A DNA stretch of 62,611 nucleotides from an uncultured Lentisphaeraceae bacterium (lineage in GTDB: Bacteria > Verrucomicrobiota > Kiritimatiellia > RFP12 > UBA1067): positions 1 through 62,611 of the forward strand of contig CAZKZI010000002.1 in assembly GCA_964557205.1 (NCBI GenBank). The letters run 5' to 3'. How positions within the stretch are numbered: position 1 is the stretch's first letter; every line of letters begins with the position of its first letter. A program made the position numbers and the translations under genes. Positions 7,454 through 46,649 of the stretch are shown piece after piece. Below the pieces are notes generated by a model. It was given only the letters and a program-made list of their open reading frames with translations. It was not told the origin of the DNA and searched no databases.

Positions 7454-7475
7454 TGCAACAGGAAGGACGGCGAAG

Positions 7476-27386: not shown

Positions 27387-28067
27387 TCAGGGCTCCGGTG
27401 GCGGTTTGAAGCCGTTGAGCGTTTCGATCAGCGTGTAGACGGTTGTGCAGGGGTTGGCGCGTGAAGGTGGCGTTTGGAACGCGACGACATCATTATGGAG
27501 GCGCTTAGCCCAAGCAATCGCCTGGGCCTGCTTGCCGGTTTGCGAAAGGACTTGATACATGTCCACGGCGTTCTTCGCGTAAGGCCGGTCCATCAGGTCC
27601 GTGAGTTTGTCTTGATACTCGGTGCGGGGCATGGCGGTGATGCGGTACTCGAAATGGAGCACGTACCAGAGTTCGAAAGCCTCGTTCGACCAGGCGGCCT
27701 TCATGCCCTGATTCTCGGCTTTCAAAATGGCGTTGTCGAAATTAGCGGGCGGGAAGCTGTCGCGGTCAAAGACGACCCAGACCTGGTCGAACGGATAATC
27801 ACTGTCGGCCCGCTCGTCACGCAGCGCCTGCGCTTTCTCGACCAGCCGCAAGGTGTTGTCGCCCTCGCCGCTGATTTCCACTTCAATGACATGCAGGGGC
27901 AATTCGGCTTTGATAGCCTTGAAGTAATTGGGCTCGGTCTTCTCGCCCTCGCAGACGATCAAGAGACGCTGCCGCTCAGCCAAAGCGTCGACTTGTCGTT
28001 TGAGGCTTTTTTGGCTGCGAAGGTGCCACGGCGTGTTGCGGTCGCTAATCTTGACGGGTTTCCCCAT
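27387..28067 (-). CDS. RloB-like (Toprim-related) protein
   Basis: LLIVCEGEKTEPNYFKAIK ... FDQVWVVFDRDSF ... AWSNEAFELWYVLHF is the RloB family signature. The start overlaps the upstream ATPase gene by 23 nt. Confidence 0.85.
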   Translation of the reverse strand: MGKPVKISDRNTPWHLRSQKSLKRQVDALAERQRLLIVCEGEKTEPNYFKAIKAELPLHVIEVEISGEGDNTLRLVEKAQALRDERADSDYPFDQVWVVFDRDSFPPANFDNAILKAENQGMKAAWSNEAFELWYVLHFEYRITAMPRTEYQDKLTDLMDRPYAKNAVDMYQVLSQTGKQAQAIAWAKRLHNDVVAFQTPPSRANPCTTVYTLIETLNGFKPPPEP

Positions 28068-29355
28068 GATCCGTCTCCTTCAAGAGGGTTTCGAAGTGGC
28101 CCAGATAGGGGATCGCGCCGTAGCGGCCGCGGATGTAATTGGCGGCAAGATCCGCATCATTGCGCACCTTGGAGCCGTCCGGGAGTTTGAACTCGGCCAA
28201 CGAATAGAGCGTCGTGGCGGCGAGGCGGTCCTTTTCCGTGAACCAGATCTGGTCGCGGCGCAGCTTGCCCTTTTCGAGCAGCATCGTGTCGTGCGTGACA
28301 AAGATCAACTGCGCGCCCTTGGGATTCGTCACGGTGGAGTTGAACATTCCGACGATGGCCTTGGTCAGTAGCGGGTGCAACTTGGCGTCCAACTCGTCGA
28401 TAGCCACCACGTAACCGTTGTCGAGGCAATCTAGAAGCGGGGCGGCCATGCGCAGGAACTTCTTAGTGCCTTCTGACTCTCGCTCGTTAAATGGAAAAGG
28501 TATGAGGATGTCCGGTTCACCGTCACGAAACCGTTGATGGATCGCTGAAATCTTCAGAGACGTTTGGTTGCGCAATTTGTTCTGCATTTCCGGGGTAAAG
28601 AACTTGAGATATCCTTCGTCGGCAGAAGTTGGCGCTTCATTGACGCTGAGTTCTGAGATTCCGACATCCGCGTTTCTGACAAAACGCACAAGTTGATCAT
28701 GCTTTGTCACGTCTTGGATGCAACGAGCGGTATAGGCGTCAAACATTTGATCGTTCAGTCCGTGGATCGTCCGGAAGTCGTTAAACCACTTGAGGATGTG
28801 ACCGGCAGTCTCGCCGTTGAACTGCGCGACGACCGAGAGGAAGAGGGCGTTATCGCGGGTCTTATCCTCCAGTCCGGAGCCCTCCTTGAACGTTTTGCGG
28901 ACGTCGATGCCGTCGTCCTCGCGCAGGAAGAGGGTGGTCTCTTTGGTCTTTTCCGTGCGGAGCAGCCATTCCTTGCGGACGGCCTTGCTGTCGGCCTCGA
29001 AACCATAGCGGTAACGCGCGCCGTTCTGGATAAGCGTGATCTCGAAGCGGCTCGGGGCGTTTTCGGTGGCGGTGTCCAGCAGGAAAGGCTTGACGGGTAT
29101 ATCATCCTCGACCTGAGTTTCCTTGGACGAGGAGAGTACGAAGCGCCGCATGAAGACCATGGCGGCGATCAGGTTCGACTTGCCGCTTGCGTTGGCGCCA
29201 TAGATGGCGGCGCTTTTTAGCAGGCGGGTATCGTCGGAGCCGGCCTCGAAGGTGTTATCATCGAGCTGCTCCTTGTAGGCGTTCACGGCGACCATGCTGA
29301 GCCGCACGGGGTCCTTGAACGAAAGATAGTTGCCGACTTCGAAATCGATCAACAT
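28045..29355 (-). CDS. AAA_15/AAA_21-type ABC-like ATPase (RloA/OLD-N-terminal-like)
   Basis: MLIDFEVGNYLSFKD..., Walker A IYGANASGKSNLI, the C-terminal VVAIDELDAKLHP (Walker B/D-loop) and QLIFVTHDT (H-loop). Confidence 0.85.
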   Translation of the reverse strand: MLIDFEVGNYLSFKDPVRLSMVAVNAYKEQLDDNTFEAGSDDTRLLKSAAIYGANASGKSNLIAAMVFMRRFVLSSSKETQVEDDIPVKPFLLDTATENAPSRFEITLIQNGARYRYGFEADSKAVRKEWLLRTEKTKETTLFLREDDGIDVRKTFKEGSGLEDKTRDNALFLSVVAQFNGETAGHILKWFNDFRTIHGLNDQMFDAYTARCIQDVTKHDQLVRFVRNADVGISELSVNEAPTSADEGYLKFFTPEMQNKLRNQTSLKISAIHQRFRDGEPDILIPFPFNERESEGTKKFLRMAAPLLDCLDNGYVVAIDELDAKLHPLLTKAIVGMFNSTVTNPKGAQLIFVTHDTMLLEKGKLRRDQIWFTEKDRLAATTLYSLAEFKLPDGSKVRNDADLAANYIRGRYGAIPYLGHFETLLKETDHGETRQD

Positions 29356-33245: not shown

Positions 33246-34715
33246 ATGGAAAAAGGCTTTTATTGGGGGTTGGTAAACAGACTGCATGCCGCAGTAGCGG
33301 CTGGCCTACTGGCGCTCTTATCAGGCTGCTGTTATCATGCGGTCAAGCCCTTGCCGGATGGGCTTTCGTATAGCAGCGGGTGGCTACCGGTGCCGGAAGC
33401 CCGGTTCTTGAGCGACCGCTCCGGTGTGGACGCTGTCGGGCGGCGGCTGGTGGAACAGGAGATTTTCGACGAGGTGTTCGGCATGATCGCCCGAGCCGAA
33501 AGGCTGGTGCTGGTAGACATGTTCCTGTTCAATGATTTTCTCGGCGTCGGTCCGCCGCCGCACCGCTGTCTCAGCAAAGAGCTGACCGAGACCCTGATCG
33601 CGCGCAAGCGTGCTGTGCCGGGATTGCGTGCGGTGCTGATCACCGACCCGGTGAATACAGTTTACGGCGGCATGGAGAACACTTATCTAAAACGTTTGGA
33701 GGCGGCTGGGGTCGAGGTGGTTGTCACCCGCCTGGAGGCGCTGCGCGACAGCAACACCGCCTGGTCGAGCGTATGGAGATTGTTCGTCCAACCTTTTGGC
33801 AACAGCCCGGGCGGCCGGGTGGCAAACCCTTTCGGTCCGGGCCGGGTCACTGTGCGCAGTTGGCTGGCGCTGCTCAACTTCAAGGCCAACCATCGTAAAG
33901 TGGTGGTGGCAGACGCGGGCGGCAGGCTGTACGCGCTGGTTACTTCCGCCAACCCGCATGACGGCAGCAGCGCCCACTCGAACGTCGGGATTGTGTTCGA
34001 GGGCGTGGCGGCGCAGGCAGTGCTGGAGACGGAGCAGGCGGTGCTGGAATTCAGCGCCGCGCCGACAGCGCCTTTATGCAACGAGTTCGTGGATGCCGCG
34101 GCGCACGCCGGGGGTCTGCCTGACGCGGGCGGAGTGCGGTTGCAGGTGCTGACCGAAGCGGCGATCGCAGATGCGGCCGAGGCCATGATAGACAGCTTGG
34201 ATGCAGGTGATCGGCTGGACCTGGTCATGTTTTATCTGGCTGACCGCGGTGTTGTCTGTGCGCTCAAGGCTGCGGCAGGATGCGGCGTGTCCTTGCGCGT
34301 GGCACTTGATCCGAACAAGGACGCTTTCGGGCGGCAGAAAAGCGGGATGCCGAACCGGCAGGTGGCGCGGGAACTGGTGGCGGCGGGTGTGCCGGTGCGC
34401 TGGGCGGTGACGAGCGGCGAGCAGATGCATTCCAAGCTGCTGTTGGCGCGAAGGGCTGACGGCTCGGCTGATCTGCTTTTGGGCTCGGCAAACTTCACGC
34501 GCAGGAATCTTCGGGACTACAATCTGGAGACCAACGTGCGTTTGTCCGGCGGAGCTGAAACGCCCGCGCTGTGCGCTGCGGCGGATTACGCCGAGCTGGT
34601 CTGGAACAACACAGGGCGCGTTTACACGACAGCTTACGAGAAGTATCGCGACGATTCGCGCTGGCGCGTCTGGCGTTACCGACTGCAGGAGGCCACTGGT
34701 CTCTGCACCTGGTAA
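33246..34715 (+). CDS. phospholipase D-family (two HKD motifs) lipoprotein
   Basis: Lipobox LLALLSGC. HKD-1 is NHRKVVVAD. HKD-2 is MHSKLLLARR...LLGSANFTRRN. Confidence 0.85.
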   Translation: MEKGFYWGLVNRLHAAVAAGLLALLSGCCYHAVKPLPDGLSYSSGWLPVPEARFLSDRSGVDAVGRRLVEQEIFDEVFGMIARAERLVLVDMFLFNDFLGVGPPPHRCLSKELTETLIARKRAVPGLRAVLITDPVNTVYGGMENTYLKRLEAAGVEVVVTRLEALRDSNTAWSSVWRLFVQPFGNSPGGRVANPFGPGRVTVRSWLALLNFKANHRKVVVADAGGRLYALVTSANPHDGSSAHSNVGIVFEGVAAQAVLETEQAVLEFSAAPTAPLCNEFVDAAAHAGGLPDAGGVRLQVLTEAAIADAAEAMIDSLDAGDRLDLVMFYLADRGVVCALKAAAGCGVSLRVALDPNKDAFGRQKSGMPNRQVARELVAAGVPVRWAVTSGEQMHSKLLLARRADGSADLLLGSANFTRRNLRDYNLETNVRLSGGAETPALCAAADYAELVWNNTGRVYTTAYEKYRDDSRWRVWRYRLQEATGLCTW

Positions 34716-35094: not shown

Positions 35095-35922
35095 TTAGTG
35101 GATGCGTTTGACGGTGCGGGCGGTGAAGGCGAGGTTTTTAAGCGCATCGCAGTAGTTGGGATCAAAAAAGAAGGGTTTCAGGTTATCCCAGGGGACTATT
35201 GTGTCAACCACGCCGGCCGCGCCGCAGAACACGCTGTAGGGCGGTATGTACCAACGGATGCCGCCGGGTTCGATCATGAAGTTACCGTTCTCGAATAACC
35301 CATCGGACATGACCTTGCTGTAAGGGGCCATCTCGGGGGGCAGCGGGGGTGAGTTTTGTTCTTTGCAGGCCTTGTCAACGATGTGTCGGTTAAGTTGAGC
35401 GTATTTTTCGGTGTCGAAAAAGTCATGTTCGGAAAGCAGCTTGCCGGTGTTGAGCGAGAAAACGCGGTTGATAGAGTAAGCATGGCAACCGTTGCCGCCC
35501 TCGGTGTGGTAGCCGTCAATGGTATAGCCGAGATAACCGGCTGTGGCGAGGCAGATTTTAAGCTTGGCGTGGTAATCCAGATAGCGATTCGCCTGTTCCC
35601 TGATTTTGAACAGGGCTTTGTAGACCAAGTACCTTTGGGCTTGGTCCGGTGCATCGTACCGCATCGGCGCGGTTTTGGATTTGTGGTCATAGAACGGGTC
35701 GGTGAAGACATCCCGGCAGATCTGGCGGCGGATGGCGGTGAGCACATTTTTATCAACACCGTCTATGTTATCCGGCCAGTCAATGTTCCAGTCGATGTCT
35801 AGCCCCAGATTGTTGAAACTAGATTTGACGCAGCCCTCGCAGGTTTTTAAAGTGACTTCGTTTTCGGCATACAGGCTGGTGGTGAGGTTGGCGCAGAGGG
35901 CTAAAAACACAAGATGTTTCAT
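35095..35922 (-). CDS. DUF3298/DUF4163-like secreted protein
   Basis: Lies within ORF 35095..36111. ATG 35922 gives signal peptide MKHLVFLALCANLTTSLYA. The C-terminal FMIEPGGIRWYIPPYSVFCGAAGVVDTIVPWDNLKPFF resembles the DUF3298 end motif. Confidence 0.55.
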   Translation of the reverse strand: MKHLVFLALCANLTTSLYAENEVTLKTCEGCVKSSFNNLGLDIDWNIDWPDNIDGVDKNVLTAIRRQICRDVFTDPFYDHKSKTAPMRYDAPDQAQRYLVYKALFKIREQANRYLDYHAKLKICLATAGYLGYTIDGYHTEGGNGCHAYSINRVFSLNTGKLLSEHDFFDTEKYAQLNRHIVDKACKEQNSPPLPPEMAPYSKVMSDGLFENGNFMIEPGGIRWYIPPYSVFCGAAGVVDTIVPWDNLKPFFFDPNYCDALKNLAFTARTVKRIH

Positions 35923-36137
35923 ATCAGGACTCCGAGTTCGGGTTATGCATGGCAAGATGTATGATGTTGAAAGGATGGCACAAGCGGTGACGGATGTCCA
36001 GAAGTGCCGATAAAAAATTCGGATATTCCAGTATGTTAATGAATAACGCCTGCCAATGTCTGTCAAAACACTGTTTTCGCAAAAGCCGCAAAAAAGAGCA
36101 AAGTGTGGCAAACGGGTTTATCGACGTTGACAGCAGT

Positions 36138-38204
36138 TCACCGATCGAGACTGGAGAGAAACTCGGAAATGGGCGTTATGCCTGTGATCAACAGGAAGTC
36201 CCGGGCGCGGGTGGCAGCCACATAGAGCATCTGACGCTCCATCGCCATGATGTCATTCGCATCAGCTTCGCGCATGGCGCAATCCAGCCGCGTTTGGAGC
36301 GGCACCCACATGGCATCGCACGCCATTACCGCAACTGCTTTGAACTCAAGTCCTTCCGCATAGGGCATGGTCGCCATCGCGATTTTTCCCTCTTCATCCG
36401 GGTTTCCTTGGTCTAACAGAACATAGTCTTGCTTTACCAAGGTCACAACCTCTTCGGCACGCGGTAGCAATTCATGGGTGCGCACGAAAATGCAGCACTC
36501 TTGCGGCTTGACCCCTGCCTCAAAAACCTGTTCCAGCCATTGGGCAACCCCGAACTGCTCTTCTTCCTTTGTCATGTACTGTCGGATCGAGGGCGATAAC
36601 CCCGAGAATATTGAGATGGCCTGGCGCCGATCTTCAATGACTCCATCCGCATCCTGAAATTGCTTTGAGACAAAACGATCAGCCAGCATCCGTATCTGAT
36701 GCGAGGTACGGTAGTTGACCTTAAGAATGTGCGAGCGGCCGACAATGTTAATCCCAGCCGATTGCCACGAGACCAGTGGTTGCCGAATCCGCTGTCCTAA
36801 ATCACCTACAAAGAAGAGCGATTGCGGCGTTTTGCGCATGGCGTTAAGCAACACAAGGTGCTCGTGCCGTAAATCCTGGCATTCGTCAGTAATAATGTAA
36901 TCGAATGGATTCTGCAACCTTCCGTCAGCAAGCATCATAGTCACGGTACGAACTTGACGAAAAGGGGGCGTCAGTCCGCGTGCTGCCAGAAGCTTAGTCG
37001 CCCGCTCAACAATTCGCCAGATCTCATGCCGCTGAACCCGACTCAACCGCACAAGTCGTCCTTGTCGCGCTAGCGCGGCATAGGACTCCGGGTTGTCAAC
37101 TCCGGCTACTTCGATCACCTGACTCCACTCGTCAAAGAGGAAGTCTTCCGAATAGTTGTTTAAATCCAAATCGATCCGGGCTTCCTTAAGCGTCTTGCGT
37201 ACCTCCCGCTCATCTGCTGCTGGCGCGGTTGTCGCTTTTCCGTCCAGAAGCAGTTCCGGCAGTGTATCAATTGCCACAACAGTGATGTGTTCAAAAACAG
37301 TTGAATCATCTCCGACTAATCGCTGCACCAGCGAGGCAAGAGATGCGGCCAGTGCCCGGGAGATCGTTGTCAACAGGATTCGTGCTGTGGGCGCTTGACG
37401 TGCCAGGTGCACCGCCCGGTGTAAAGCCACCACCGTCTTGCCAGTTCCCGGACCGCCGCAGATACGCGCATCGCCGTCATCCTCTGCTTCGACCCACTTA
37501 CGCTGTTCGGGGTGAAGGAAGATGCGCCAATCATCCCAGGGCATGGACAAGGCGGCTTGCAGTGCATTCGGCGAATCAATAGCGTAAAAACGGCGGGCTG
37601 CATCGGGTGCGAGAAACGGATTGGTTGTCGCCACTGGCCACCGCGTCACTCGCGGTGTACCGCCGCTCGCCAGTGTCAGCAGGGCTTCGACAGCTTCCTC
37701 CGGCAAATATTCGATAAAGTCCAACAATTCTTTTTCCGAGCGAACACCACGCACATCGTTCACCCACTGATCCGGAATTCCCAGCCAGGCAAATTCGGTT
37801 CGCGGTAGATTGGCGAACAGGGGACGGCGCTGATCGCGTACGGGTGTGGGTCTGGCACGCATTTCTGACTTCACCAGTTCACGCAGAACAACCATCTGCA
37901 TTGCGCCGGTCGTGGGATTGGCAGCAAACTTCCGTTTCTGCGCCCAGGCATAAGCCTGATCGTGGTGGTCGGCATAGCAGAAGAGGGTGCCGTGCTCTGA
38001 GTCATGCAGAATGAGCCGGATGTCCCGCGTACTTCGCAACGACCAGAAGCCAGGATCGCGGCAGCGGTCGAGCCGGTGTTTGCGCAACCCCGGATGGGCG
38101 GGGTTCGCCTGATACATCTCCGCCGCCTCGACCGCGCTCTCTCGCTCAGCGGCCTGCAGTCGCGTCAGACTCTCAGTAAAACTCTTGGCAATGAACAATC
38201 CCAT
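36138..38204 (-). CDS. UvrD/Rep-type SF1 helicase with an N-terminal RelE/ParE-like domain (operon gene 7)
   Basis: Walker A GGPGTGKTVVALHRA, motif II FDYIITDECQDL, motif III FFVGDLGQRI, NYRTSHQI, and motif VI LYVAATRARDFLLITG. The N-terminal ~95 aa (NPAHPGLRKHRLDRCRDPGFWSLRSTRDIRLILHDSEHGTLFCYADHHDQAY) follow the RelE/ParE pattern. Confidence 0.85.
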   Translation of the reverse strand: MGLFIAKSFTESLTRLQAAERESAVEAAEMYQANPAHPGLRKHRLDRCRDPGFWSLRSTRDIRLILHDSEHGTLFCYADHHDQAYAWAQKRKFAANPTTGAMQMVVLRELVKSEMRARPTPVRDQRRPLFANLPRTEFAWLGIPDQWVNDVRGVRSEKELLDFIEYLPEEAVEALLTLASGGTPRVTRWPVATTNPFLAPDAARRFYAIDSPNALQAALSMPWDDWRIFLHPEQRKWVEAEDDGDARICGGPGTGKTVVALHRAVHLARQAPTARILLTTISRALAASLASLVQRLVGDDSTVFEHITVVAIDTLPELLLDGKATTAPAADEREVRKTLKEARIDLDLNNYSEDFLFDEWSQVIEVAGVDNPESYAALARQGRLVRLSRVQRHEIWRIVERATKLLAARGLTPPFRQVRTVTMMLADGRLQNPFDYIITDECQDLRHEHLVLLNAMRKTPQSLFFVGDLGQRIRQPLVSWQSAGINIVGRSHILKVNYRTSHQIRMLADRFVSKQFQDADGVIEDRRQAISIFSGLSPSIRQYMTKEEEQFGVAQWLEQVFEAGVKPQECCIFVRTHELLPRAEEVVTLVKQDYVLLDQGNPDEEGKIAMATMPYAEGLEFKAVAVMACDAMWVPLQTRLDCAMREADANDIMAMERQMLYVAATRARDFLLITGITPISEFLSSLDR

Positions 38205-38210
38205 GACCGC

Positions 38211-40703
38211 CTACTGCATGGTTCCGATCGCTGAACCCAGTTCCCGATCTTCAATTGTGTCCGTTTTGCGGATAAACCGCGCCACATAATCGGAAAAGCA
38301 GCCTCCTACCTGATTCATGTTAGCAACCATGGTTGGAGGAAAACATACATTAGCAAGCTGTCCGTCAAAGTTAATTAGCCGCAACAATCTTTCCCGCAAG
38401 GGATCATCTTTATTGGCAAGAAAGTCCGGATGCGTTTCACGTACGCTAAGAGCAAAGAGGATAGAAAACAACACGTCCTTCCGTGGCACATCAGCAAAGC
38501 CATTAAGATTGAAGTTTGGCAAATAATTTATCAAAGCGTTCAAATAGCATTGCACAAGTTCAAGATTTATTGTGATTCCAGTATGCCAGCAGAGCATCCT
38601 AAAGAGTGACCAACACAACATTTTCGCTTGCTGTGGATCACTAAAATGTGCGTTTTCGCAATAGTTTACGAGTAATTGAAGATCATCAGGATGATCACCA
38701 AGAACAAAACCAGGGCCATGTGCCTCGGAGTAAGACGGGAATGGTGCGTTAATTCGCAGAAGTGAGCGAATATGATTCTTGTAAGCTTGCGATGCATGTC
38801 CGTGACAGTAGTTGTTCTGCTTACTCCAATTATTACGAAGCTGCATACCAGCAGGTATGTTTCCGTTTTGCCAAAGATGATTCGAGAGAATCTCTGCCAA
38901 CTCGGATATTTCCCTGTCTGGTAACACACGCGTGCCAAACAGACCGCGGGTAGGTTGACTTGGGTGAGCACGCCACCCCCAGCGATCAAGAGCGCTAAAA
39001 GGAAAAATTGGTGCGCAGTGAACCGGGGGAGAATCAACACGATATTGCTGAACAGCATTTTGCAAAGCAGCAATTTGATCTTCTTCCCCATTACAGTATC
39101 TGACCAACAAACTGAGCATTTCCAGATTTGCTGGATCATCATAGATGCGTCCAATTACAGGTTGAGCTTCAAGATAGCCTTTGTGCTCAGGCTCGGGCTT
39201 CGTCTCTCTGCCTTGTGCGTGATCGTCTGGATCAAGGGCATAGGTAAGTATGACGGAGTTTTTTCCCTGTTTTCCGTCCGAAACAAAAGGTCGCGAATCA
39301 TCAGCCGCAGTGACAGTAAACCTGGCGTTTCCCCTTGCTGCTTCTACCGTTGCATCAAGACGCAGAGGCAGTTCTTGTGGCAATGGCGTAAAAAGGTCCA
39401 CCTGAAGCCGACGTGCGTAGTCGTAGTCTGGATCATCACAAGGAAGCCGCCGAACGAGCATGGAAAAGCGATCTCGATGACGGTTGATGCAGAAGGCATT
39501 GTGTATGGCGTCATCATTTAATGTCCACGGGATTCCTGGTTCAACCTCCTGATTGGGAGCAACAAGCTGCCTGCCGCCTTGGCTGGTCCAGATTCTGTAC
39601 TCCGGCAACGTATCGTAGTAGGTCGGTTGATTTTCCGCCCGCCGCTCGGCGAAAAGCCGCGATCCTTCAGCTACCGCTGCAAGCGGTAACACCCGGATAT
39701 TCCGTCCAGGCCATACGCCCTCAAGCATCGCTTTCAACCCGTCCGCATCAAGATGCGTGAGCCATCCGTAAACAAGAATGGTGTCGCCTTGCGCAAGATT
39801 AAAATCCTGATGCGTAAGGACGTTCTGCAAGCCATGCCACGTGTGCGGTAATGCGTCAGGCTTTGTTACATGGACCTTTTGCCAACGTATTCCTGCACAG
39901 ACCCAGATATCAAATGCGCGCGCTTCGGATTCCAACTGCTCCTGCACCTCGGGCGCGGTCTGGCAACATCTTAACTGGTCGCGCTCAGGGATATTGGAAA
40001 ACAACTCACTCCAGGCGCCATTCAGAGCCGTGTAATTAAGGTTTCTCCGACGCTCAATGTCTGTCGCGCAGGTGCGAACTGGCGCAATCCAGGCGTTGTC
40101 GCGCTGATGGCGTCGCCAGGTTAGTCGCGTAAACTCCAGCCCTGCCGAGTCGAGGTCCAGTACCCAGACCGCGCCGGTGCCCTTTGTATTGGCAAAGACT
40201 TCTTCCCCATCGCCAGCGGTTAGCCAATACAGCATGGCGGCCACGGGCCGCCAAAGCAACGATACATCGGAATGGATGCCGCTCAAGGCGCGCAGCAACG
40301 CATCCTGCGCGTCTTCGTTCAACCGGTTGGGGATTACAAAGGCGAGTTTTCCCTGCTCGTTTCTTAATGTAGGCAAATGTGCTTTAAGAGCATCAGCTAC
40401 CAATGATGCGCTTTGCCAGACATTTTTCCTCTGCGTCAAATCGCGCCAGATTGCCTCAATCGAAAGCAGGTTGGCTGTGAAAACAGTAGCGGCGTTATTT
40501 CCCTGTACGATATTGAACTCTCTGTTACATACCTGTGGACGAAAGTTTTTGGGACTGCCCCACGTTATGCGCTCGTCATGATCCTTTGCACCAGCGGCAT
40601 CGGCATAGGGTGGGCAACCGAGGAGAACGTGTCGTGTATTGACAGCTTCTTGTTCTATCTGCCACCGCAGGGCTCGCCCAGAGAGATCAATGCCGACACT
40701 CAT
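38211..40703 (-). CDS. large protein with an N-terminal degenerate Hsp70/actin-fold (ASKHA) ATPase domain (operon gene 6)
   Basis: Collinear matches to DnaK NBD motifs are visible. VGIDLSG matches [28 protein letters not shown] matches [33 protein letters not shown] matches [28 protein letters not shown] matches [26 protein letters not shown] matches [26 protein letters not shown] matches PDEAVAIGAAVQG. The C-terminal ~480 aa are unassigned. Confidence 0.6.
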   Translation of the reverse strand: [830 protein letters not shown]

Positions 40704-42373
40704 GTCATCACCTCCTGAAGCATTTTATGGACTTTGTCCTTGAAGAATCCATTGCTGCCACGCAGCATGTTTTTATCAGGCGGCAACTCCCATAGAACAG
40801 CACGCCCTTTGCGATCTTCCACTCTTGTTCTTTCCGCAGCGCGCACAAGTAACAACATGGGAATCGTAACCGTCGAGCGATTCGTTTCTGGCGAATGCCT
40901 CCATGCGATGCCAGCTTCTTCAACCCCCTTCAAGCATTCGGTGCGTAACGCCTTTGTTTTCATTTCATCCTGCCATCGACCATCGCCGATCAGTGTCCAG
41001 ACTGGAACCGCACGCACTTTTGGCCAGTCGGTAGAAACTGCAATCCAGTAAAGATCGGCATTCAGCCGATCCAGCGACAGGCCGCCCAGGCTGGACACAC
41101 GGCTAACGTCTTCACGGTTGAAAAGATAAAGCGAGATGTGGTTGCCGTCGTTTTCAAAGACAAGCGGACCATCGAAGGGTTCGGCTTTGAACCAGCAACC
41201 AAATTGTGGCTCTTTGAGGATGCGAATTGGTTTCATCGAGGCCTGAAATGCCGGAGGCCTCTCTTGGAATTTCAGGGTCCGCATGACTTCTATCATGCTT
41301 GCACGTACATAGTCGGTCCAGGCACGGCGTTTCCAGCGCCACGTCTGGTCACAAATGTCCTCCTGACGCAGCAACTTCTGATAAGCATCCCAGACCTTCA
41401 TGTACCGGACGTTCTGCTGAAGGGCGTAATTGGGTCTGCGGCAGGGAACTGCCAGCGGCGTCACACTGGTCAAAGTTGGTGATGACAAAAACTGTTCACA
41501 TCGGCGTGCAAAGGCGTCCACCCGACGTACACGTCGGCTGCAAACCGTTTCATCATTATTTCGCAGCAGCTCCCCGGTGCATTTTTTGCAGCGGGCACAC
41601 TCTTCTGCGACATACGCCATTGCTGCTGTTCGAGCGCGTCTACAGAAATCATGTACTACCCGATTTTCCAGGGTATTGGCTGTTTCTTCTCGAATAACCG
41701 CCAAAAGCTGCTGCCGATCTCCGGCTTTAATGACAGAGGTATGCCCTGGACGACGGGCGTAGTCGATAAGTGCGGTGAGGTCCATCTCCTGAAGGCGATC
41801 CAGCCTGACCTGGGCATGTTTACGCTGCAGTAAACGTCTCGGTCTTTCGATGATCTCCTGAAGTGGGCCGGGTAAATCTTCAGCTAGATTACAGATTAAT
41901 GCGCGCGAGGCAAAGTCCTCATCCTGAGATGAAAAAAAACTTTCAATCGCCTCTGTTAATAGCTGCTCAAAAAATAAGTCATACAGTTTCTTACGCTTTT
42001 TATAGAGATCATCGGCAAGTTCCTGCAGGTTATTAGTTAACATGCTATGGAACTTGCCAGGCCACTCCTCATAACTTGTTGACTGGGCACCTTTGTATGG
42101 CAGAATGGTAGTTGTCTCCTGCATTGGTAAACGCAGCGTCAAATCCTGTGGACCATCTGCGCGAAATGACGGGCCGGGAAGTTCGAACCAGAAGCTGCCA
42201 TCTGATAAGCGTGTCGGAGTCAGTCCAACTGCCAGATGTGCCACCTCTTCTTCAGATGCATCATAAATCCAGATGCCTGCGCCGTTGTCCGGTCTAACCC
42301 CTTTGTCAGGCGTAACACCTCTTGCCGGAGAGAGTATTACCTGCCAGGGGTATTCTGTGAATGCCCATGGCAT
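40700..42373 (-). CDS. McrC/DUF2357-like protein, nuclease motif not evident (operon gene 5)
   Basis: IIERPRRLLQRKHAQVRL and EETANTLENRVVHDFCRRA parallel QIRRRPHTLLRRE and LDTQPNRFIKFALQQF in 25043..27037. The position of PDY...DAKY reads ADLYW...IGDGRW. The start overlaps gene 6 by ATGA, and the gene lies 3 nt after gene 4. Confidence 0.5.
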   Translation of the reverse strand: MPWAFTEYPWQVILSPARGVTPDKGVRPDNGAGIWIYDASEEEVAHLAVGLTPTRLSDGSFWFELPGPSFRADGPQDLTLRLPMQETTTILPYKGAQSTSYEEWPGKFHSMLTNNLQELADDLYKKRKKLYDLFFEQLLTEAIESFFSSQDEDFASRALICNLAEDLPGPLQEIIERPRRLLQRKHAQVRLDRLQEMDLTALIDYARRPGHTSVIKAGDRQQLLAVIREETANTLENRVVHDFCRRARTAAMAYVAEECARCKKCTGELLRNNDETVCSRRVRRVDAFARRCEQFLSSPTLTSVTPLAVPCRRPNYALQQNVRYMKVWDAYQKLLRQEDICDQTWRWKRRAWTDYVRASMIEVMRTLKFQERPPAFQASMKPIRILKEPQFGCWFKAEPFDGPLVFENDGNHISLYLFNREDVSRVSSLGGLSLDRLNADLYWIAVSTDWPKVRAVPVWTLIGDGRWQDEMKTKALRTECLKGVEEAGIAWRHSPETNRSTVTIPMLLLVRAAERTRVEDRKGRAVLWELPPDKNMLRGSNGFFKDKVHKMLQEVMT

Positions 42374-42376
42374 AAA

Positions 42377-44050
42377 TTAATTGTCTTCCCCGTATGCCCA
42401 ATCCAACCCCTGCCAGTGGAAGAAACCGGAGCGGTTTTTCTGTCTGTTTACAGCGTTATCAAAAGCAGTATTCAGGGTGTCATCGCCAATTAGTTGGACC
42501 GTTTCTCCTACCAGCTCCAGTGTCTGAGCATGTTGTGTAAGGTCCAGTCCACGCAGTTTGGGCATGATGCGCATGCCAATCTGATCGGCCAGCGGACGTT
42601 TAAAGAAACCTAGTGTATCACTCTCGTCAATTCCCGCAGCCTTGTATGGATAGTTTGCCAGATAGCTCAGCATGGCCTGGTAGGATCTGTGCGCAAATGG
42701 ACGTCCCAGGTTTGCTAATTCGTTATTGAGTCTTTTGAGTTGCTGCTCTGCTATATGCCAACGACCATTTTCCTGTGTGTCAATTGCAGTAACGTCTTGC
42801 TTCCAATTTTCCCAGGCTGTGCGTTGCAGCATCTTTTGTGTGCCATTCTGTTTATCGGCTGTCATAGGTTTCAAGTTGTTGGGCCGCCCGAAATAGAGCA
42901 CATTTGCCCGATCAAGAACCTTGTCTGAGAGACTTTGGGTAGTTTCGTCCTCGTTCATTGTGCCGACAAAAAGCGTATTGTAATTTGCGAACAGTTGGAT
43001 TGGTTTTTCCCTGAATTCAACTTCTTGGTTGTTTTCCCCCTCCTTTTCAAAACCGTTGGCACCTGCGAATATCTCCATTGCAACTCTGCGCCGATGTTCG
43101 GTATCGTCTAGCCTGCCCCCGCGACGCAACTCCAGCTTGCTCAGGAACTCACTGAAGTAGTATTCAATACGTGCCAGGTTCATCTCATCCAGCATTGCCA
43201 TCAGCATGTATTCACTGAGGTCAGGGTCAGGATGTAACCCCTCCTGCGGGTGATGTCCCTGAAACTGAAACAGCGCTTTGGCAAGCGGTGTCGGTTCATA
43301 GCGGTTGGTGACATAGTTAAAGAATCCGAGAAGATCCTTGGGGCTGTCCCAACGCGGCTCAACCGCCAACGTAACCAGATGTATGCCCATGGCTTTGGCA
43401 TAGAGATCCGGCAGGGCGCTTTTTCCTGTTCCGCTCACGCCCGCCATAACCGTCAGGCTGGATATATCGGAGGTCTTAAGTGAGGTGTGGAAGGCATAGA
43501 GCAGACGCTCTGGCAGATCATATTCACGAATATTACGAACATAGTTCTTCATGCCATCCAATGCCTGGGTCTCAGATTTAAATTCCTGATCGGCAGATGG
43601 AGTTGTAAATACCGGATTTTTGACAATCCCCTCAAATGCCGCCTGTCGCAGAACAACCGGCCTCTCTTTCCGTGCCTTTGCAATGGCGGCAAGATCATCC
43701 ATCATCTGTTGGTTGGTCTGACATATTGAATGTTGTAACTCCCTTGTACTCTTGAGCGTTTCGTCCAGGGCCTTCAGTGCCTTAGCCTTTGATTCGTATT
43801 CCTGTGCTTTGGACCCCAGATTCTCAATAGCCTCGTTGATCTTTTTGAGCTTGGCTTCGTTCGGGCCAATTTCGTTTTCAAGGTCGTTCTTTTTTGCTTT
43901 CAGTTTGCTTATTTCAGGAATCAACTGCCCCACCCGTTCCTGTGCTTGTTCGATTTGATTTTTCAACGTATCAAGCGATGTGCGGGCTTCATCTCGATCC
44001 TTGCGAAGTCTTTCCAATTCATCCGCGAGCAAGGCATGTTCTGACTCCAT
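42377..44050 (-). CDS. coiled-coil + McrB-family AAA+ NTPase (operon gene 4)
   Basis: The N-terminal ~110 aa have heptad-rich coiled-coil character. Walker A is MAGVSGTGKSALPDLY. Walker B region is MLDEMNLARIEYYFSEFLSKLE. FVGTMNEDETTQSLSDKVLDRANVLYF is present. It is clearly paralogous to the AAA+ module of 22025..24610. Confidence 0.8.
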   Translation of the reverse strand: MESEHALLADELERLRKDRDEARTSLDTLKNQIEQAQERVGQLIPEISKLKAKKNDLENEIGPNEAKLKKINEAIENLGSKAQEYESKAKALKALDETLKSTRELQHSICQTNQQMMDDLAAIAKARKERPVVLRQAAFEGIVKNPVFTTPSADQEFKSETQALDGMKNYVRNIREYDLPERLLYAFHTSLKTSDISSLTVMAGVSGTGKSALPDLYAKAMGIHLVTLAVEPRWDSPKDLLGFFNYVTNRYEPTPLAKALFQFQGHHPQEGLHPDPDLSEYMLMAMLDEMNLARIEYYFSEFLSKLELRRGGRLDDTEHRRRVAMEIFAGANGFEKEGENNQEVEFREKPIQLFANYNTLFVGTMNEDETTQSLSDKVLDRANVLYFGRPNNLKPMTADKQNGTQKMLQRTAWENWKQDVTAIDTQENGRWHIAEQQLKRLNNELANLGRPFAHRSYQAMLSYLANYPYKAAGIDESDTLGFFKRPLADQIGMRIMPKLRGLDLTQHAQTLELVGETVQLIGDDTLNTAFDNAVNRQKNRSGFFHWQGLDWAYGEDN

Positions 44051-44055
44051 TCGGG

Positions 44056-44475
44056 CTATTTCAGTTTTTCGGCTTGTGCTATCAATTCCTGGATTTTATC
44101 ATTTAGATTTTGAAGCTCCCTTTGCTTGGTATTGATCTCGGCCACCAGATTGGCAAGTATTTTTTCCAATGCCTCCCGTTCCCCATCTAATCTTGGCTTC
44201 TCATATTCAAGCCAATCCTCGGCCTCTTTTTTTCTCCTTAAAATCTCTGTAACCTTTGTATATTCGTCGTTCAAATTTTCAAGCTGTTTGCTCAACAACG
44301 TAGCTTTTTCAGCATTTTCAATTTGATTTTTTAAGGCAGTCAACTCTTTGTCAGCGTTACTGCGCAATAGCGCAACTTGTTCTTCGAGATCGCGTTTTTC
44401 GCGGGCTTTGCTGATATAGATGACGATTGCCAGAACAGCAGATGCCAGATAGGCGATAATTAGATGATTTTCCAT
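44056..44475 (-). CDS. small membrane-anchored coiled-coil protein (operon gene 3)
   Basis: An N-terminal hydrophobic helix (LIIAYLASAVLAIVIYI) is followed by KAREKR and ~110 aa of E/K/L/Q-rich coiled-coil sequence. It shares LKNQIE(N/Q)A with the gene 4 N-terminus. Confidence 0.65.
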   Translation of the reverse strand: MENHLIIAYLASAVLAIVIYISKAREKRDLEEQVALLRSNADKELTALKNQIENAEKATLLSKQLENLNDEYTKVTEILRRKKEAEDWLEYEKPRLDGEREALEKILANLVAEINTKQRELQNLNDKIQELIAQAEKLK

Positions 44476-44499
44476 AATGATGTTCCTGTTAGTTTGAGA

Positions 44500-45768
44500 T
44501 TATGGTTGCGGCTGGAGGTCAGCATCCGCGTTCCCAGTCGCACCTGCCGGAGCCTTCGCATTAGTAGCGCGAATGAATCGCTCAAGTTCAGCAAGATCCT
44601 TTTTGAGCTGTTCCAGCGTCTTGCGCACAATCAATTCATCGCGCCTCGCCTCGTCCAGGCGTTTGTGAGCTTCGGCTGCGCCGATCCGCGCCTCTGCCTC
44701 GGCTTCACGTGCTTTCATTTCTCCTTCTTTGGCAGCCTTGAGCCGCGCCTCCGCCTCGGCGACCTGTGTTTGCACCTTTTTTAATGCGGATTGCAGCTCA
44801 ATGATCTCAGCCGTTGCCTTATCGATTTGATCTTTCAGATCGCGAAGTTTTTCATTTGCCTGCTCAACTTGTGCCGTGTATTTGGACGCCTCAGTGCGCC
44901 TGGCATCAGTCTGTTCGCGTGCCGATTTCAGATTTGCCTGTTCCAAGGCCAGCTCCTCCTTGATCTCCGACAGCAGCTTGTTGGTGGCAGTAAGTTGAGC
45001 TTCCACTGCTGTTTTGGCTTGCAGAGCGACCGCCTGTTCCTGTTTCAGATCGTTCAGCCTCTTTTGTTCTTTTTTGATCTCCGCAAGAGTCGTATTCAGG
45101 CTGGAGAGAGCATTTTTCAATTCGGCGTCCTTCTCGTCGATTTCCGCACCCAGACGTTTTTTATCGTCGCCCAGGGTGACGATATCCTTGTTCAATTGGT
45201 CACGGCGTTTCTCGGCATCAAGTGCTTCCTGCGTCAATCGCGGCACGCGTATTTCAAGCCCCTGCAATGCTACAGCCACTGTGTTGGTATGCGCCTGCAG
45301 GTTTGCCGACTCCTGTTTTAGAAACTCTGTTTCTTCACTAACTTTTCCATTCTCGATTCGCAGTAGATGATTCGTCCGCGACAGAGTTTGGCAAATACTT
45401 TCAGCCGCCATACGATCCGCTTCAGCATTTTTACGCAATTCATTCTCTTTGTTATGGGCTGCTATAGCACTTTGCAGTTTGGTGTTAGCTTCTCTAACGC
45501 GATCAACCAGGTTGGTTAATTCAATTTCGGTTTCCACCGTCTCCTGAACCTTCCGGCTAGTTTTTTTATTGAGCTTGTCAATTTCTTCGTTGAGAGAGAC
45601 AACCTCCTTTTTTTTATCACGTATGCGAGCCTTGATATTAAAAAGTTCAACTTGCGGCAGTAATCCGACGATAACGACACTGATAAAAATAATCAAGACG
45701 CACAGTTCAATGATGCCCTGCCAACGTTTTTTATCCGGCTTGCGCACCTGTTTTTCAGTCTGTTCCAT
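44500..45768 (-). CDS. membrane-anchored long coiled-coil protein (operon gene 2)
   Basis: The ORF-track start TTG 45777 overlaps gene 1. ATG 45768 lies 9 nt after GAGGAG and 1 nt after the gene 1 stop. One TM helix (GIIELCVLIIFISVVIVGLL) is followed by ~380 aa of coiled-coil-type sequence. Confidence 0.65.
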   Translation of the reverse strand: MEQTEKQVRKPDKKRWQGIIELCVLIIFISVVIVGLLPQVELFNIKARIRDKKKEVVSLNEEIDKLNKKTSRKVQETVETEIELTNLVDRVREANTKLQSAIAAHNKENELRKNAEADRMAAESICQTLSRTNHLLRIENGKVSEETEFLKQESANLQAHTNTVAVALQGLEIRVPRLTQEALDAEKRRDQLNKDIVTLGDDKKRLGAEIDEKDAELKNALSSLNTTLAEIKKEQKRLNDLKQEQAVALQAKTAVEAQLTATNKLLSEIKEELALEQANLKSAREQTDARRTEASKYTAQVEQANEKLRDLKDQIDKATAEIIELQSALKKVQTQVAEAEARLKAAKEGEMKAREAEAEARIGAAEAHKRLDEARRDELIVRKTLEQLKKDLAELERFIRATNAKAPAGATGNADADLQPQP

Positions 45769-45769
45769 G

Positions 45770-46396
45770 TTAATCAACTCCTCTCATTTGATTCCAAAGT
45801 GTCTTTACCTGTTTGGCACATTCATCCATGTCTTGCATCAACTCTGACACCCAAAACCGTTTAACCGACCATCCAGCGGCTACGAGTTTTGCGTCCCGTA
45901 TAACATCTTGTACTTTGCGACGTCCTCTCCTGTCGCAATGGGTGGAGCGTCCGTCCACCTCCACGTCCAGACGTTGACATCCGTCTGACGATACGAGAGC
46001 GATGTCAAGAAAGTACCCCTCGGCAGGATACTGTTGGAAGATGTTAAGTCCCATCTTCCAGAGCTTGTCGGCAAATGCCGGTTCCCAGACTGGACCGATA
46101 AAGGCGGGATTACCCACTAGCGTTGGGCCGCTAGATGATGAACAAGATGGCGTGTTGACCGATTTTGAAAGTGTTTTATCAGAAGCAGAAAACTGCTTGA
46201 GACACCAGAGTGTGCCGTGATTTATTGACACAGCATTTTCATCGGACAGGTCGGCCATGGCCATGGCAACCTGGCTCAGGCGGGTGGCAAAACCGATACG
46301 CATACGCAGCACATAAAATCCCATGCCGACCGGCGAACCGGCCAGGTTTTCCTTAATCGCTTGTTTCAGTGTTTCATCTCGCAACGCAGATGGCAT
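45770..46396 (-). CDS. DUF559 / Vsr-like restriction-endonuclease-fold protein (operon gene 1)
   Basis: The C-terminal half FADKLWKMGLNIFQQYPAEGYFLDIALVSSDGCQRLDVEVDGRSTHCDRRGRRKVQDVIRDAKLVAAGWSVKRFW follows the DUF559 pattern (E..f...L...g....Q..v..Y.lDfa....l.iEvDG..H.....D..Rd..L...Gw.v.Rf). The N-terminal ~110 aa are unassigned. Confidence 0.7.
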   Translation of the reverse strand: MPSALRDETLKQAIKENLAGSPVGMGFYVLRMRIGFATRLSQVAMAMADLSDENAVSINHGTLWCLKQFSASDKTLSKSVNTPSCSSSSGPTLVGNPAFIGPVWEPAFADKLWKMGLNIFQQYPAEGYFLDIALVSSDGCQRLDVEVDGRSTHCDRRGRRKVQDVIRDAKLVAAGWSVKRFWVSELMQDMDECAKQVKTLWNQMRGVD

Positions 46397-46649
46397 GTTT
46401 TTGAAAACCTTAAAAACAGACGTAAATATATCCTGTCACATTAATAAAGATATACCATTCACATCATTATTCGAAACTATAACTGGGTTGCGTACTGATG
46501 GCAAGTCTCTTTGAGAGGAAGATGGCAGACGGGTTGTGATTGATTTTTGGCACCGCTGGAAGTAGTATATATACGGTTTATGTACGCGAATTAGTTTCTC
46601 ATTTGCCTTTCGAGTTATGTAGGACAAGTCAGGATTCAGCGGGGGAGTT
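46397..46649. promoter_or_regulatory. AT-rich divergent intergenic region (likely promoters of the seven-gene operon and of 46650..48803)
   Basis: A 253-nt gap between divergent starts, markedly AT-rich. I could not pin convincing -35/-10 hexamers. Confidence 0.35.

Follow-up and report, generated by a model that had tools for sequence, protein, structure and literature searches.

The window analysed here is a stretch of 62,611 nucleotides from contig CAZKZI010000002.1 of an uncultured Lentisphaeraceae bacterium (assembly GCA_964557205.1), and the subject of this report is a group of seven open reading frames (ORFs), designated g1 to g7, which lie on its minus strand in the same direction and span positions 36138–46396. 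The ORFs are tightly packed. In the order g1 to g7, the junctions between them measure 1 nt (or −8 nt, depending on whether g2 starts at the ATG codon at 45768 or at the TTG codon at 45777), 24, 5, 3, −4 and 6 nt. The seven ORFs and their junctions had been listed in a preliminary description of this DNA; they were reproduced exactly, and every motif quoted there was present in the translations. The same description placed the genes in an AT-richer island with a G+C content of about 47%. The island is real, but the computed G+C content of the operon is 51.0%, compared with 60.2% and 61.9% in the 5-kb flanks. By gene, the value is 56% for g7 and 40–51% for g1–g6. No tRNA genes flanking the island were found.

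The domains and gene order of the operon were compared with those of the coiled-coil nuclease tandems (CoCoNuTs), which form one subclass within the McrBC-type systems of type IV restriction (Bell, Sahakyan, Makarova, Wolf and Koonin; bioRxiv 10.1101/2023.07.31.551357, later eLife). CoCoNuTs are defined by an McrB GTPase of the NxD clade, long coiled coils, and McrC homologues with a missing or inactive nuclease accompanied by other nucleases; in the McrB branch that bears them, the signature is shortened to NxD and the next residue is usually E or D (10.1101/2023.07.31.551357). The Cnu protein names used below are taken from that work, and related loci from other genomes and metagenomes are denoted by L and a number.

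The product of g4 (42377–44050) is an McrB-type AAA+ GTPase of the NxD clade with a coiled coil of about 125 aa in front of it. Its motifs are GVSGTGKS, LDEMNLARIEYYF and GTMNEDETT, and the Walker motifs are intact. The protein matched the PADLOC profile PDC-M26A (7e-39), which also matched a second McrB encoded in the window, one of the MrcB_N type (1.5e-42). Alignment of a profile of the g4 GTPase domain to this second McrB with hhalign gave a probability of 99.1% (E 4e-19, 298 columns), and it is through this protein that g4 was tied to McrB. The string GTMNEDETT, with N-E-D-E corresponding to the NxD+E signature, was invariant both in 8 and in 19 family members. More than 6300 homologues of g4 were found. 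Residues 1 to ~125 of g4, as well as g3 and g2, gave coiled-coil matches of the SMC/myosin type, and a search of PDB with the profile of the full CnuB was swamped by the coiled coils of myosin and SMC proteins.

In related loci, a coiled coil of ~250 aa and the GTPase are found in one protein. The product of g3 (44056–44475), which contains a transmembrane (TM) helix and a coiled coil, aligns with residues 1–131 of the single CnuB proteins of L004 (703 aa) and L002 (692 aa). As judged from these alignments, g3 and g4 together make up cnuB, a gene that is one ORF in every relative. The frame of g3 passes into that of g4 by a −1 shift at a run of five A residues on the minus strand (44065–44069), and the addition of one A to this run gave a 699-aa ORF that is colinear with the L004 CnuB (1–699 against 1–703) at 71% identity. 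The frame of g4 is open for 15 codons 5′ of its ATG, and the sequence encoded there (...KTEIARMESE) is similar to that of L004 (...SEIAEMESE). The ATG itself (44050) lies 5 nt past the stop codon of g3, and the homologues share the Met that it encodes (MESE).

The split cnuB sequence is shared by two further assemblies obtained from other samples, namely L026 (ENA ERZ27248937) and L027 (Logan SRR8437217); the two matches to the window extend over 11 and 15 kb and contain 0 and 1 mismatches. Because the same sequence is found in assemblies from different samples, the frame change is real and not an artefact; an error of sequencing or assembly, including a homopolymer error, is ruled out. Programmed −1 frameshifting through slippage of tRNA-Lys on A_AAA was also considered and found to be unsupported, the run being short and the 85 nt downstream of it folding worse than their shuffles (z +1.9). 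The outcome of the frameshift could be either an anchor-less GTPase produced by re-initiation at the ATG at 44050 together with a separate anchor, or a partly disabled system.

The gene g2 (44500–45777) encodes a CnuA-like protein in which a coiled coil of ~380 aa follows a single TM helix at the N-terminus. The mean Kyte–Doolittle hydropathy is 3.14 for residues 22–40 of g2 and 2.22 for residues 4–22 of g3 (19-residue averaging span), so that both starts have the hydrophobicity typical of TM helices. Both proteins gave coiled-coil-type matches only, including a match of g2 to the SMC-type model TIGR02168 (1.2e-9), and g2 is homologous to the protein in the same position in L004 (5e-41). In the preliminary description, g2 and g3 had been taken for two membrane-anchored coiled-coil proteins; the TM helices of both were confirmed, but g3 is the frameshifted N-terminus of CnuB and not a separate component. 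N-terminal TM helices on both coiled-coil proteins, CnuA and CnuB, were found in all 11 loci checked, including loci with a UPF1-like helicase. Pfam matches of these TM/coiled-coil starts to DivIC/FtsB were below the 28.9-bit cut-off (E 0.001–0.04; E 0.002 for residues 27–73 of g2). They give a hint towards CoCoPALM, whose NxD McrB GTPase carries an FtsB-like TM helix with a coiled coil and which is linked to signal-peptidase or pilus-assembly genes (10.1101/2023.07.31.551357). A TM helix and a coiled coil are present in all CnuB homologues, the FtsB match being sub-threshold.

The product of g5 (40700–42373) is a CnuC-like McrC homologue with a DUF2357 domain, a cluster of cysteines and a C-terminal domain that lacks a (D/E)xK motif. 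The Pfam match to DUF2357 (3.4e-9) scored 36.7 bits with a cut-off of 23.3 bits, and no PDDEXK Pfam match was found in g5. An alignment of 13 sequences revealed four conserved cysteines (C259, C262, C278 and C292) and one invariant aspartate, D440 in "LNAD", with no ExK. No coiled-coil segment was detected in g5. Searches of Pfam with the N- and C-terminal fragments at E values of up to 10 gave nothing, and the family profile gave only chance-level matches to PDB sequences. Comparison of the family with the canonical McrC encoded in the window by hhalign gave a probability of less than 1%. Since only the ET..T.ENR motif was lined up, the C-terminal domain of g5 is not alignable to a PD-(D/E)xK nuclease. 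By sequence, g5 is thus a CnuC-like protein without a recognisable nuclease motif. In McrBC systems, the DUF2357 domain of McrC plugs into the McrB ring and activates it.

For the protein encoded by g6 (38211–40703), searches of Pfam, PADLOC, NCBIfam and PDB by sequence gave no match. A model was built using AlphaFold2 from 14 homologues (predicted local distance difference test score (pLDDT) 79.6; predicted TM-score 0.76). The top 47 matches of this model in a Foldseek search were to DnaK/Hsp70/Hsp110 structures, among them DnaK, BiP and Hsp110 at full length (E down to 4.5e-11, probability 1.0, 540–705 columns). The model comprises an Hsp70-fold nucleotide-binding domain (NBD), a beta-sandwich domain similar to the substrate-binding domain (SBD) of Hsp70 (residues ~363–505) and a C-terminal domain of ~300 residues that is all helical. 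Direct reading of the sequence showed that the phosphate loops are degenerate (GIDLSGRA for GIDLGTTNS and LDLDSAG for DLGGGTFD). These characteristics allow us to assign g6 as CnuD-like and to retain its earlier description as a degenerate Hsp70-fold protein, a fold revealed solely by structure prediction. The coiled coils predicted for the published CnuD were not seen in the g6 model. A word-based search found only 15 close homologues. When 1.84 billion cluster representatives were searched exhaustively with a profile, 573 of them matched at E<=1e-3, of which 305 reached E<=1e-10 and 55 reached E<=1e-30; as far as these searches reach, the family is small and not unique.

The gene g1 (45770–46396) encodes a stand-alone Vsr/DUF559-type PD-(D/E)xK endonuclease of 208 aa with a short N-terminal domain. 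Matches to the Pfam families MTES_1575 (1.1e-11) and DUF559 (1.1e-7) both passed the cut-off. Seven residues (D144, E146, D148, G149, D164, R167 and D168) are invariant across nine homologues of g1, and the residues of catalytic type among them (D144, E146, D148, D164, R167 and D168) are intact, as read from the alignment. The Vsr domain of g1 is 48–54% identical to the C-terminal Vsr domain of the UPF1-like helicases of L008 and L020. A weak match (E 0.04) was found between the N-terminus of g1 and residues 238–297 of the L008 CnuH, and the N-terminal domain of g1 may be a winged helix-turn-helix (wHTH). In terms of sequence, g1 is likely to be the effector, either CnuE-like or equivalent to a CnuH that has lost the helicase core.

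The last gene, g7 (36138–38204), encodes a helicase of superfamily 1A (SF1A), UvrD type, which is preceded by a RelE/YoeB-fold domain (residues 1 to ~95) and, between the two, by a linker with a helical region. The helicase part matched the Pfam families UvrD-helicase (8.5e-14) and UvrD_C (1.7e-12), and its motifs GGPGTGKT and DECQD are present, with intact Walker motifs. The N-terminus gave nothing in Pfam at E values of up to 10. An AlphaFold2 model of residues 1–241 had a pLDDT of more than 94 over residues 1–95, and Foldseek matched this domain to YoeB (2a6r) and RelE (3bpq) with an E value of 8e-5, a target TM-score of 0.71–0.76 and a root-mean-square deviation (rmsd) of ~2.6 Å. Over all toxin matches (YoeB, RelE and YafQ), the target TM-score was 0.66–0.76 and the rmsd 2.4–2.9 Å. 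According to the model, the N-terminal domain of g7 has the RelE/YoeB microbial RNase fold; several homologues of g7 have been named "RelE of RelBE" by JGI. PADLOC matches of g7 were to stand-alone or Gabija-type UvrD helicases (C3a187 and GajB). Taken together with the results above, the assignments made in the preliminary description for g1, g4, g5, g6 and g7 all held.

Some further observations concern the surroundings of g7. The assemblies L026 and L027, which are otherwise identical to the window, both end at exactly position 37230 inside g7, and truncation at a contig end is also common among homologues of the g7 N-terminus. These breaks suggest that strains vary at this place or that it contains a repeat. 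Genes of the g7 family were also found away from CoCoNuT genes, in L028 (9001–9978) and L029 (9001–10789); these copies have transposase genes as neighbours and are either truncated or split. On the strand of g7 and 26 nt beyond its end there is an ORF of 338 aa with a DUF3298 domain (35095–36111); it was considered as an eighth gene and dropped, having no similarity to the gene after g7 in L004.

Neighbourhoods of the homologues were collected in nine look-ups and two collection scans and re-annotated with phmmer; the scans, made with two narrow peptide patterns, gave 3 loci in genome contigs and 13 loci in metagenomes. The core order was found to recur in ~20 independent contigs from metagenomes or metagenome-assembled genomes (MAGs), at 23–60% identity of g6. 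It consists of a Vsr nuclease, a TM coiled-coil protein (314–436 aa), a TM-coiled-coil-McrB protein (638–723 aa), a DUF2357 protein (514–564 aa) and an Hsp70-like protein (792–890 aa). On this comparison of sequences, the arrangement is far beyond chance. The hosts of the lineage are MAGs of Bacteroidales, Kiritimatiellae and Selenomonadaceae. A Vsr-type nuclease is present in all loci except L007. It is a free protein (171–229 aa) in L002, L004, L006, L010, L011, L017, L019 and a 36-kb JGI contig, and it forms the C-terminal domain of a UPF1-like superfamily 1 (SF1) helicase (AAA_11/AAA_12, 1158–1379 aa) in L008 and L020. The CnuH of L009 is broken into pieces of 594 aa and 112 aa. A RelE-UvrD helicase at CoCoNuT loci was found only in the window and in the lineage of L004, L005 and L012. 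Thus, gene order is conserved among the homologues for the five-protein core, with g3 and g4 counted as one gene, but not for all seven genes of the preliminary description, since g7 at such loci is confined to the window and the L004 lineage.

Other genes occupy the place of g7 elsewhere. A conserved protein of ~290–300 aa follows CnuD in L002 (11496–12404), L003 (2473–3381), L006 (16027–16956) and L021 (1321–2250); no Pfam or PADLOC match was found for it, and its domain also occurs inside a 1071-aa Sel1-repeat protein upstream in L002. The 36-kb JGI contig has a TPR protein in this position. In L007, a VWA/PP2C/kinase triad similar to TerY-P (4573–8426) lies directly upstream of a CnuA-B-C-D set without a Vsr nuclease. 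Among the neighbours of the related loci are a type I restriction-modification system in L006, a Hhe-type helicase gene (DUF4011/AAA_11/AAA_12/MTES_1575) in L006 and in L002, an AAA_15/DUF4435 gene adjoining the copy on the JGI contig, and a Schlafen-domain helicase.

A codon-by-codon comparison of the window with L004, which comes from a Bacteroidales MAG, revealed a stretch with a DNA identity of 94–99% that begins near codon 130 of g4 and ends near codon 100 of g5; the identity is 80–94% from there on to about codon 300 of g5. The resulting high-identity core of GTPase and DUF2357 domains is ~2.2 kb long and corresponds to ~41470–43660 in the window and 7026–9230 in L004. Elsewhere (g1, g2, g3, the coiled coil of g4, the C-terminus of g5, g6 and g7) the DNA identity is 44–65%. 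At conserved residues, identity at third codon positions is 85% over the whole of g4 and 38–46% in g1–g3, g6 and g7. Because the identity of the core is far above that of the rest, it can be concluded that the GTPase/DUF2357 core was recently exchanged between otherwise diverged operons, which points to recombination across hosts as well.

The nearest published counterpart of the operon is the Type III-B CoCoNuT. In this type, CnuH combines a wHTH, a UPF1-like SF1 helicase and a fused C-terminal Vsr-like nuclease; CnuA is a pure coiled coil, and CnuB is also present. The Type III-B CnuC has a DUF2357 domain, an N-terminal Ig-like beta-sandwich and a PD-(D/E)xK fold that is retained but inactivated, and CnuD is a protein encoded separately, with an Hsp70-like NBD/SBD, HEAT-like repeats and degenerate Walker-A-like motifs (10.1101/2023.07.31.551357). 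The window shares with Type III-B CnuA, CnuB, CnuC with the Cys cluster and without catalytic residues, a separate CnuD with a helical-repeat tail and a Vsr-like nuclease, so that four of five proteins are matched together with the Vsr domain of the fifth. In L008 and L020, all five proteins are matched, and the full fusion of UPF1-like helicase and Vsr nuclease stands at the position of g1. TerY-P never occurs with Types III-B or III-C (10.1101/2023.07.31.551357), and in keeping with Type III-B no TerY-P triad (VWA, PP2C and kinase genes) was found in or beside the operon. Compared with Type III-B, the Vsr nuclease of the window is free behind a short N-terminal domain with no CnuH, a RelE-fold/UvrD helicase is added at the 3′ end and cnuB is frameshifted. 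The operon was not called an outright member of Type III-B because CnuH, a defining feature of this type, was not found. Judged by its parts and gene order, the operon is most aptly classed as a variant CoCoNuT that is Type III-B-like.

A RelE-like ("RTL") domain precedes the helicase in the CnuH of Types II and III-A (10.1101/2023.07.31.551357), and g7 is similar to these proteins in that its RelE-like domain stands directly N-terminal to an SF1 helicase. The layout of g1, a short N-terminal domain (perhaps a wHTH) followed by a nuclease, is like that of the wHTH-effector CnuE. Unlike in Types II and III-A, the helicase g7 is of the SF1A/UvrD type and not of the UPF1-like SF1B type, an SmpB-like OB fold is lacking, the nuclease belongs to the Vsr type and not to HEPN, and helicase and nuclease are located at opposite ends of the operon and do not form a cnuHE pair. 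By analogy, this suggests that CnuH and CnuE were functionally replaced by non-orthologous parts. The operon may be like CoCoPALM in the TM helix and coiled coil on an NxD McrB, for which the DivIC/FtsB matches are below the cut-off, but no signal-peptidase or pilus-assembly genes were found in any locus, the McrC homologue carries no coiled coil, and the Hsp70-like CnuD and the Vsr nuclease are CoCoNuT traits. Like canonical McrBC (McrB and McrC of E. coli), it encodes an AAA+ GTPase with a DUF2357 partner immediately downstream; it differs in the lack of an MrcB_N-like DNA-binding specificity domain, in the NxD (not NxxD) signature, in the unrecognisable nuclease of the McrC homologue and in four or five extra conserved partners.

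These comparisons bear on the novelty that had been proposed for the locus. Its label as CoCoNuT-like stands, since parts and gene order match the published Type III-B; it is a variant of a computationally defined CoCoNuT rather than a new kind of defence system, and the match to this subtype covers four of its proteins and the Vsr domain but not CnuH. Three of the four differences that the preliminary description had regarded as undescribed are already described or nearly so. An McrC homologue without catalytic residues is no departure at all, as an inactive CnuC has been described. The other three claims hold in part. A separate coiled-coil protein, CnuA, has been published, but its TM anchor is new; a Vsr-like effector has been published, but not a free one without a helicase; and a RelE-like domain before the helicase is known from Types II and III-A, but a helicase of UvrD type in place of UPF1 type is new. 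The membrane anchors of CnuA and CnuB, the free Vsr nuclease without CnuH and the UvrD-type helicase are not in the published CoCoNuT text.

All these characteristics, namely the domain identities, the NxD+E signature, the conserved synteny, the match to Type III-B, the defence genes near the relatives, the further McrBC and AbiL genes of the window, the TM helices kept in all 11 loci checked, the low-GC island and the tight junctions, allow us to assume that the locus is a CoCoNuT-class operon directed against phages, that it was acquired horizontally, and that its nearest published type is III-B. We give this reading a probability of about 0.72. The proposed target of CoCoNuTs is RNA or a ribosome-associated substrate (10.1101/2023.07.31.551357). 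In the operon of the window, the coiled coils of CnuA and CnuB would form a bundle that holds the motor, a CnuB hexamer with CnuC, at the inner face of the membrane. CnuD would serve as a sensor or adaptor that binds a ligand derived from the invader, either nucleic acid or a ribosome-associated substrate, and this binding would license GTP hydrolysis stimulated by CnuC. The Vsr nuclease g1 is proposed to cleave in trans because CnuC would be unable to cut. Finally, g7 would stand in for the UPF1-like CnuH by unwinding and possibly, as a second and abortive layer, by acting as a RelE-type ribosome-dependent RNase.

A number of points weigh against the assignment to the CoCoNuT class. To our knowledge, no CoCoNuT has ever been tested by experiment, and the mechanism given above is all inference. 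The Pfam AAA_5 match of g4 is weak (1.5e-3, below the cut-off), and no McrB structure was found when PDB sequences were searched with a profile of the GTPase domain only. According to Pfam, the operon contains no UPF1-like (AAA_11/AAA_12) helicase, so the CnuH of Type III-B is missing. The window CnuA and CnuB begin with a TM helix, and the main text of the CoCoNuT paper does not contain the word "membrane" at all and gives TM helices only for the FtsB-like CoCoPALM (10.1101/2023.07.31.551357). The hosts are different too: those of Type III-B are mainly Alphaproteobacteria (10.1101/2023.07.31.551357) and those of the window lineage are not. In view of the hosts and anchors, the lineage may lie outside Type III-B as defined. 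Further, the cnuB gene is frameshifted in three assemblies, so this copy may be non-functional, and g7, which is absent from most relatives and whose family also occurs away from CoCoNuT genes, may not belong to the machine.

The place of g7 is the subject of one alternative, according to which two systems are adjacent here, g1–g6 being of CoCoNuT type and g7 an independent mobile module, a single-gene defence system or toxin. The sporadic occurrence of g7, which is replaced in most related loci by the ~290-aa protein, by a TPR protein or by nothing, fits this explanation, as do the family members beside transposases in L028 and L029, the PADLOC matches to stand-alone or Gabija-type helicases, the G+C content of 56%, which is above that of g1–g6, and the two independent assemblies that break inside g7. 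Yet the g6–g7 junction of 6–7 nt is kept in the L004 lineage at an identity of only 65% for g7 and 60% for g6, and g7 is found in precisely a lineage without CnuH, as would be expected of a functional replacement. We therefore consider two separate systems rather doubtful. A different alternative takes the split of cnuB as its starting point and regards the locus as a decaying remnant: a Type III-B CoCoNuT would have lost the helicase core of CnuH, leaving g1 as a wHTH-Vsr stub, then acquired the frameshift in cnuB, and would no longer work in defence. The A5 run does split a gene that is one ORF in every relative, no RNA structure backs programmed frameshifting, the Vsr domain of g1 is most like the C-terminal domain of CnuH-type helicases, and the CnuH of L009 is broken as well. 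The form with a free Vsr nuclease, however, recurs with intact ORFs in at least eight diverged loci, which argues that it is stable. The other six ORFs of the operon are intact over 10 kb, the ATG 5 nt past the stop at a conserved Met is compatible with coupled re-initiation, and three assemblies, each from a different sample, agree in this sequence. Decay thus appears unlikely, and more so than the presence of two systems.

It may also be asked whether the genes serve immunity at all. Coiled coils, an AAA+ protein and an actin/Hsp70 fold could, by analogy with CoCoPALM, form a membrane machine related to the envelope, division or pili. Hsp70 and actin folds occur in cytoskeletal and division proteins too; the N-termini with TM helix and coiled coil give sub-threshold matches to DivIC/FtsB, and CoCoPALM relatives are linked to pilus-assembly genes. 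On the other side, no locus contains signal-peptidase or pilus genes, a conserved and catalytically intact Vsr-type nuclease, free or fused, is always there except in L007, and the neighbours are restriction-modification, Hhe-type helicase, AAA_15/DUF4435 and Schlafen-type genes. In addition, the distribution is patchy, the island has a low G+C content, and mosaic recombination of this sort is a common trait of defence loci. A non-immune role is therefore considered very improbable. Within the preferred reading, that of an anti-phage operon of the CoCoNuT class, a more specific proposal can be made tentatively, and we hold it to be less probable than its opposite, namely that the locus represents a distinct, undescribed CoCoNuT lineage, mainly of uncultured anaerobes such as Bacteroidales, Kiritimatiellae and Selenomonadaceae. 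Such a lineage would have a membrane-anchored motor and CnuA, a non-orthologous RelE-fold/UvrD helicase that displaced CnuH, a free CnuE-like Vsr nuclease and a GTPase/DUF2357 core cassette that recombines between distant hosts separately from the coiled coils, the sensor and the effector, and the A5 frameshift could be a natural means of making an anchor-less motor and a separate anchor.

Few of the immune systems predicted in prokaryotes are as elaborate as the CoCoNuTs, and the lineage found here offers a compact form with six or seven genes as a testable entry to their biology, in which the free Vsr nuclease can be mutated separately. With both the motor and its coiled-coil partner anchored, surveillance would be expected where a genome enters the cell or where translation is membrane-bound. 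The swap of the helicase with a RelE-like domain being kept argues that the pairing of an RNase-toxin domain with an SF1 helicase is what counts, and not the UPF1 lineage. The nearly identical GTPase/DUF2357 core shared with a Bacteroidales MAG points to modular recombination inside such systems. As regards annotation, the CnuC, CnuD and CnuA of this lineage are currently missed by PADLOC, Pfam and NCBIfam.

A promoter-like site was located on the minus strand ~80 nt upstream of g1 (46476–46504; TTGCCA, a 17-nt spacer and TATAGT). With 10 of 12 consensus matches it is the best sigma-70-like match of the region; overall, such sites are no more numerous there than expected from shuffles, which makes this weak evidence for a promoter. 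On the opposite strand, ~1.4 kb from the end of the operon, a PLD-like protein of 489 aa is encoded (33246–34715; PLDc_2, 1.5e-18).

Another low-GC block of the window (~17–30 kb, 44–55% G+C) contains the second McrBC pair on the plus strand, composed of an McrB with an MrcB_N domain and an NxD-type motif VGTVNVDETT (22025–24610) and an McrC with DUF2357 and PDDEXK_7 domains (25043–27037). It is adjoined by an AbiL-type pair on the minus strand (27387–28067 and 28045–29355), in which AbiLi (AAA_21) was recognised by PADLOC at 6e-100, and the value for AbiLii (RloB) was 1.8e-28. Together with the CoCoNuT-type operon, the window therefore contains at least three defence loci. Two large ORFs without a Pfam match were also found on the plus strand (3305–7453, 1382 aa; 13842–16649, 935 aa). 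They are located among surface- or glycan-related genes with Laminin_G_3, BNR and PKD domains, and this gene setting suggests a host similar to Verrucomicrobia/Kiritimatiellae.

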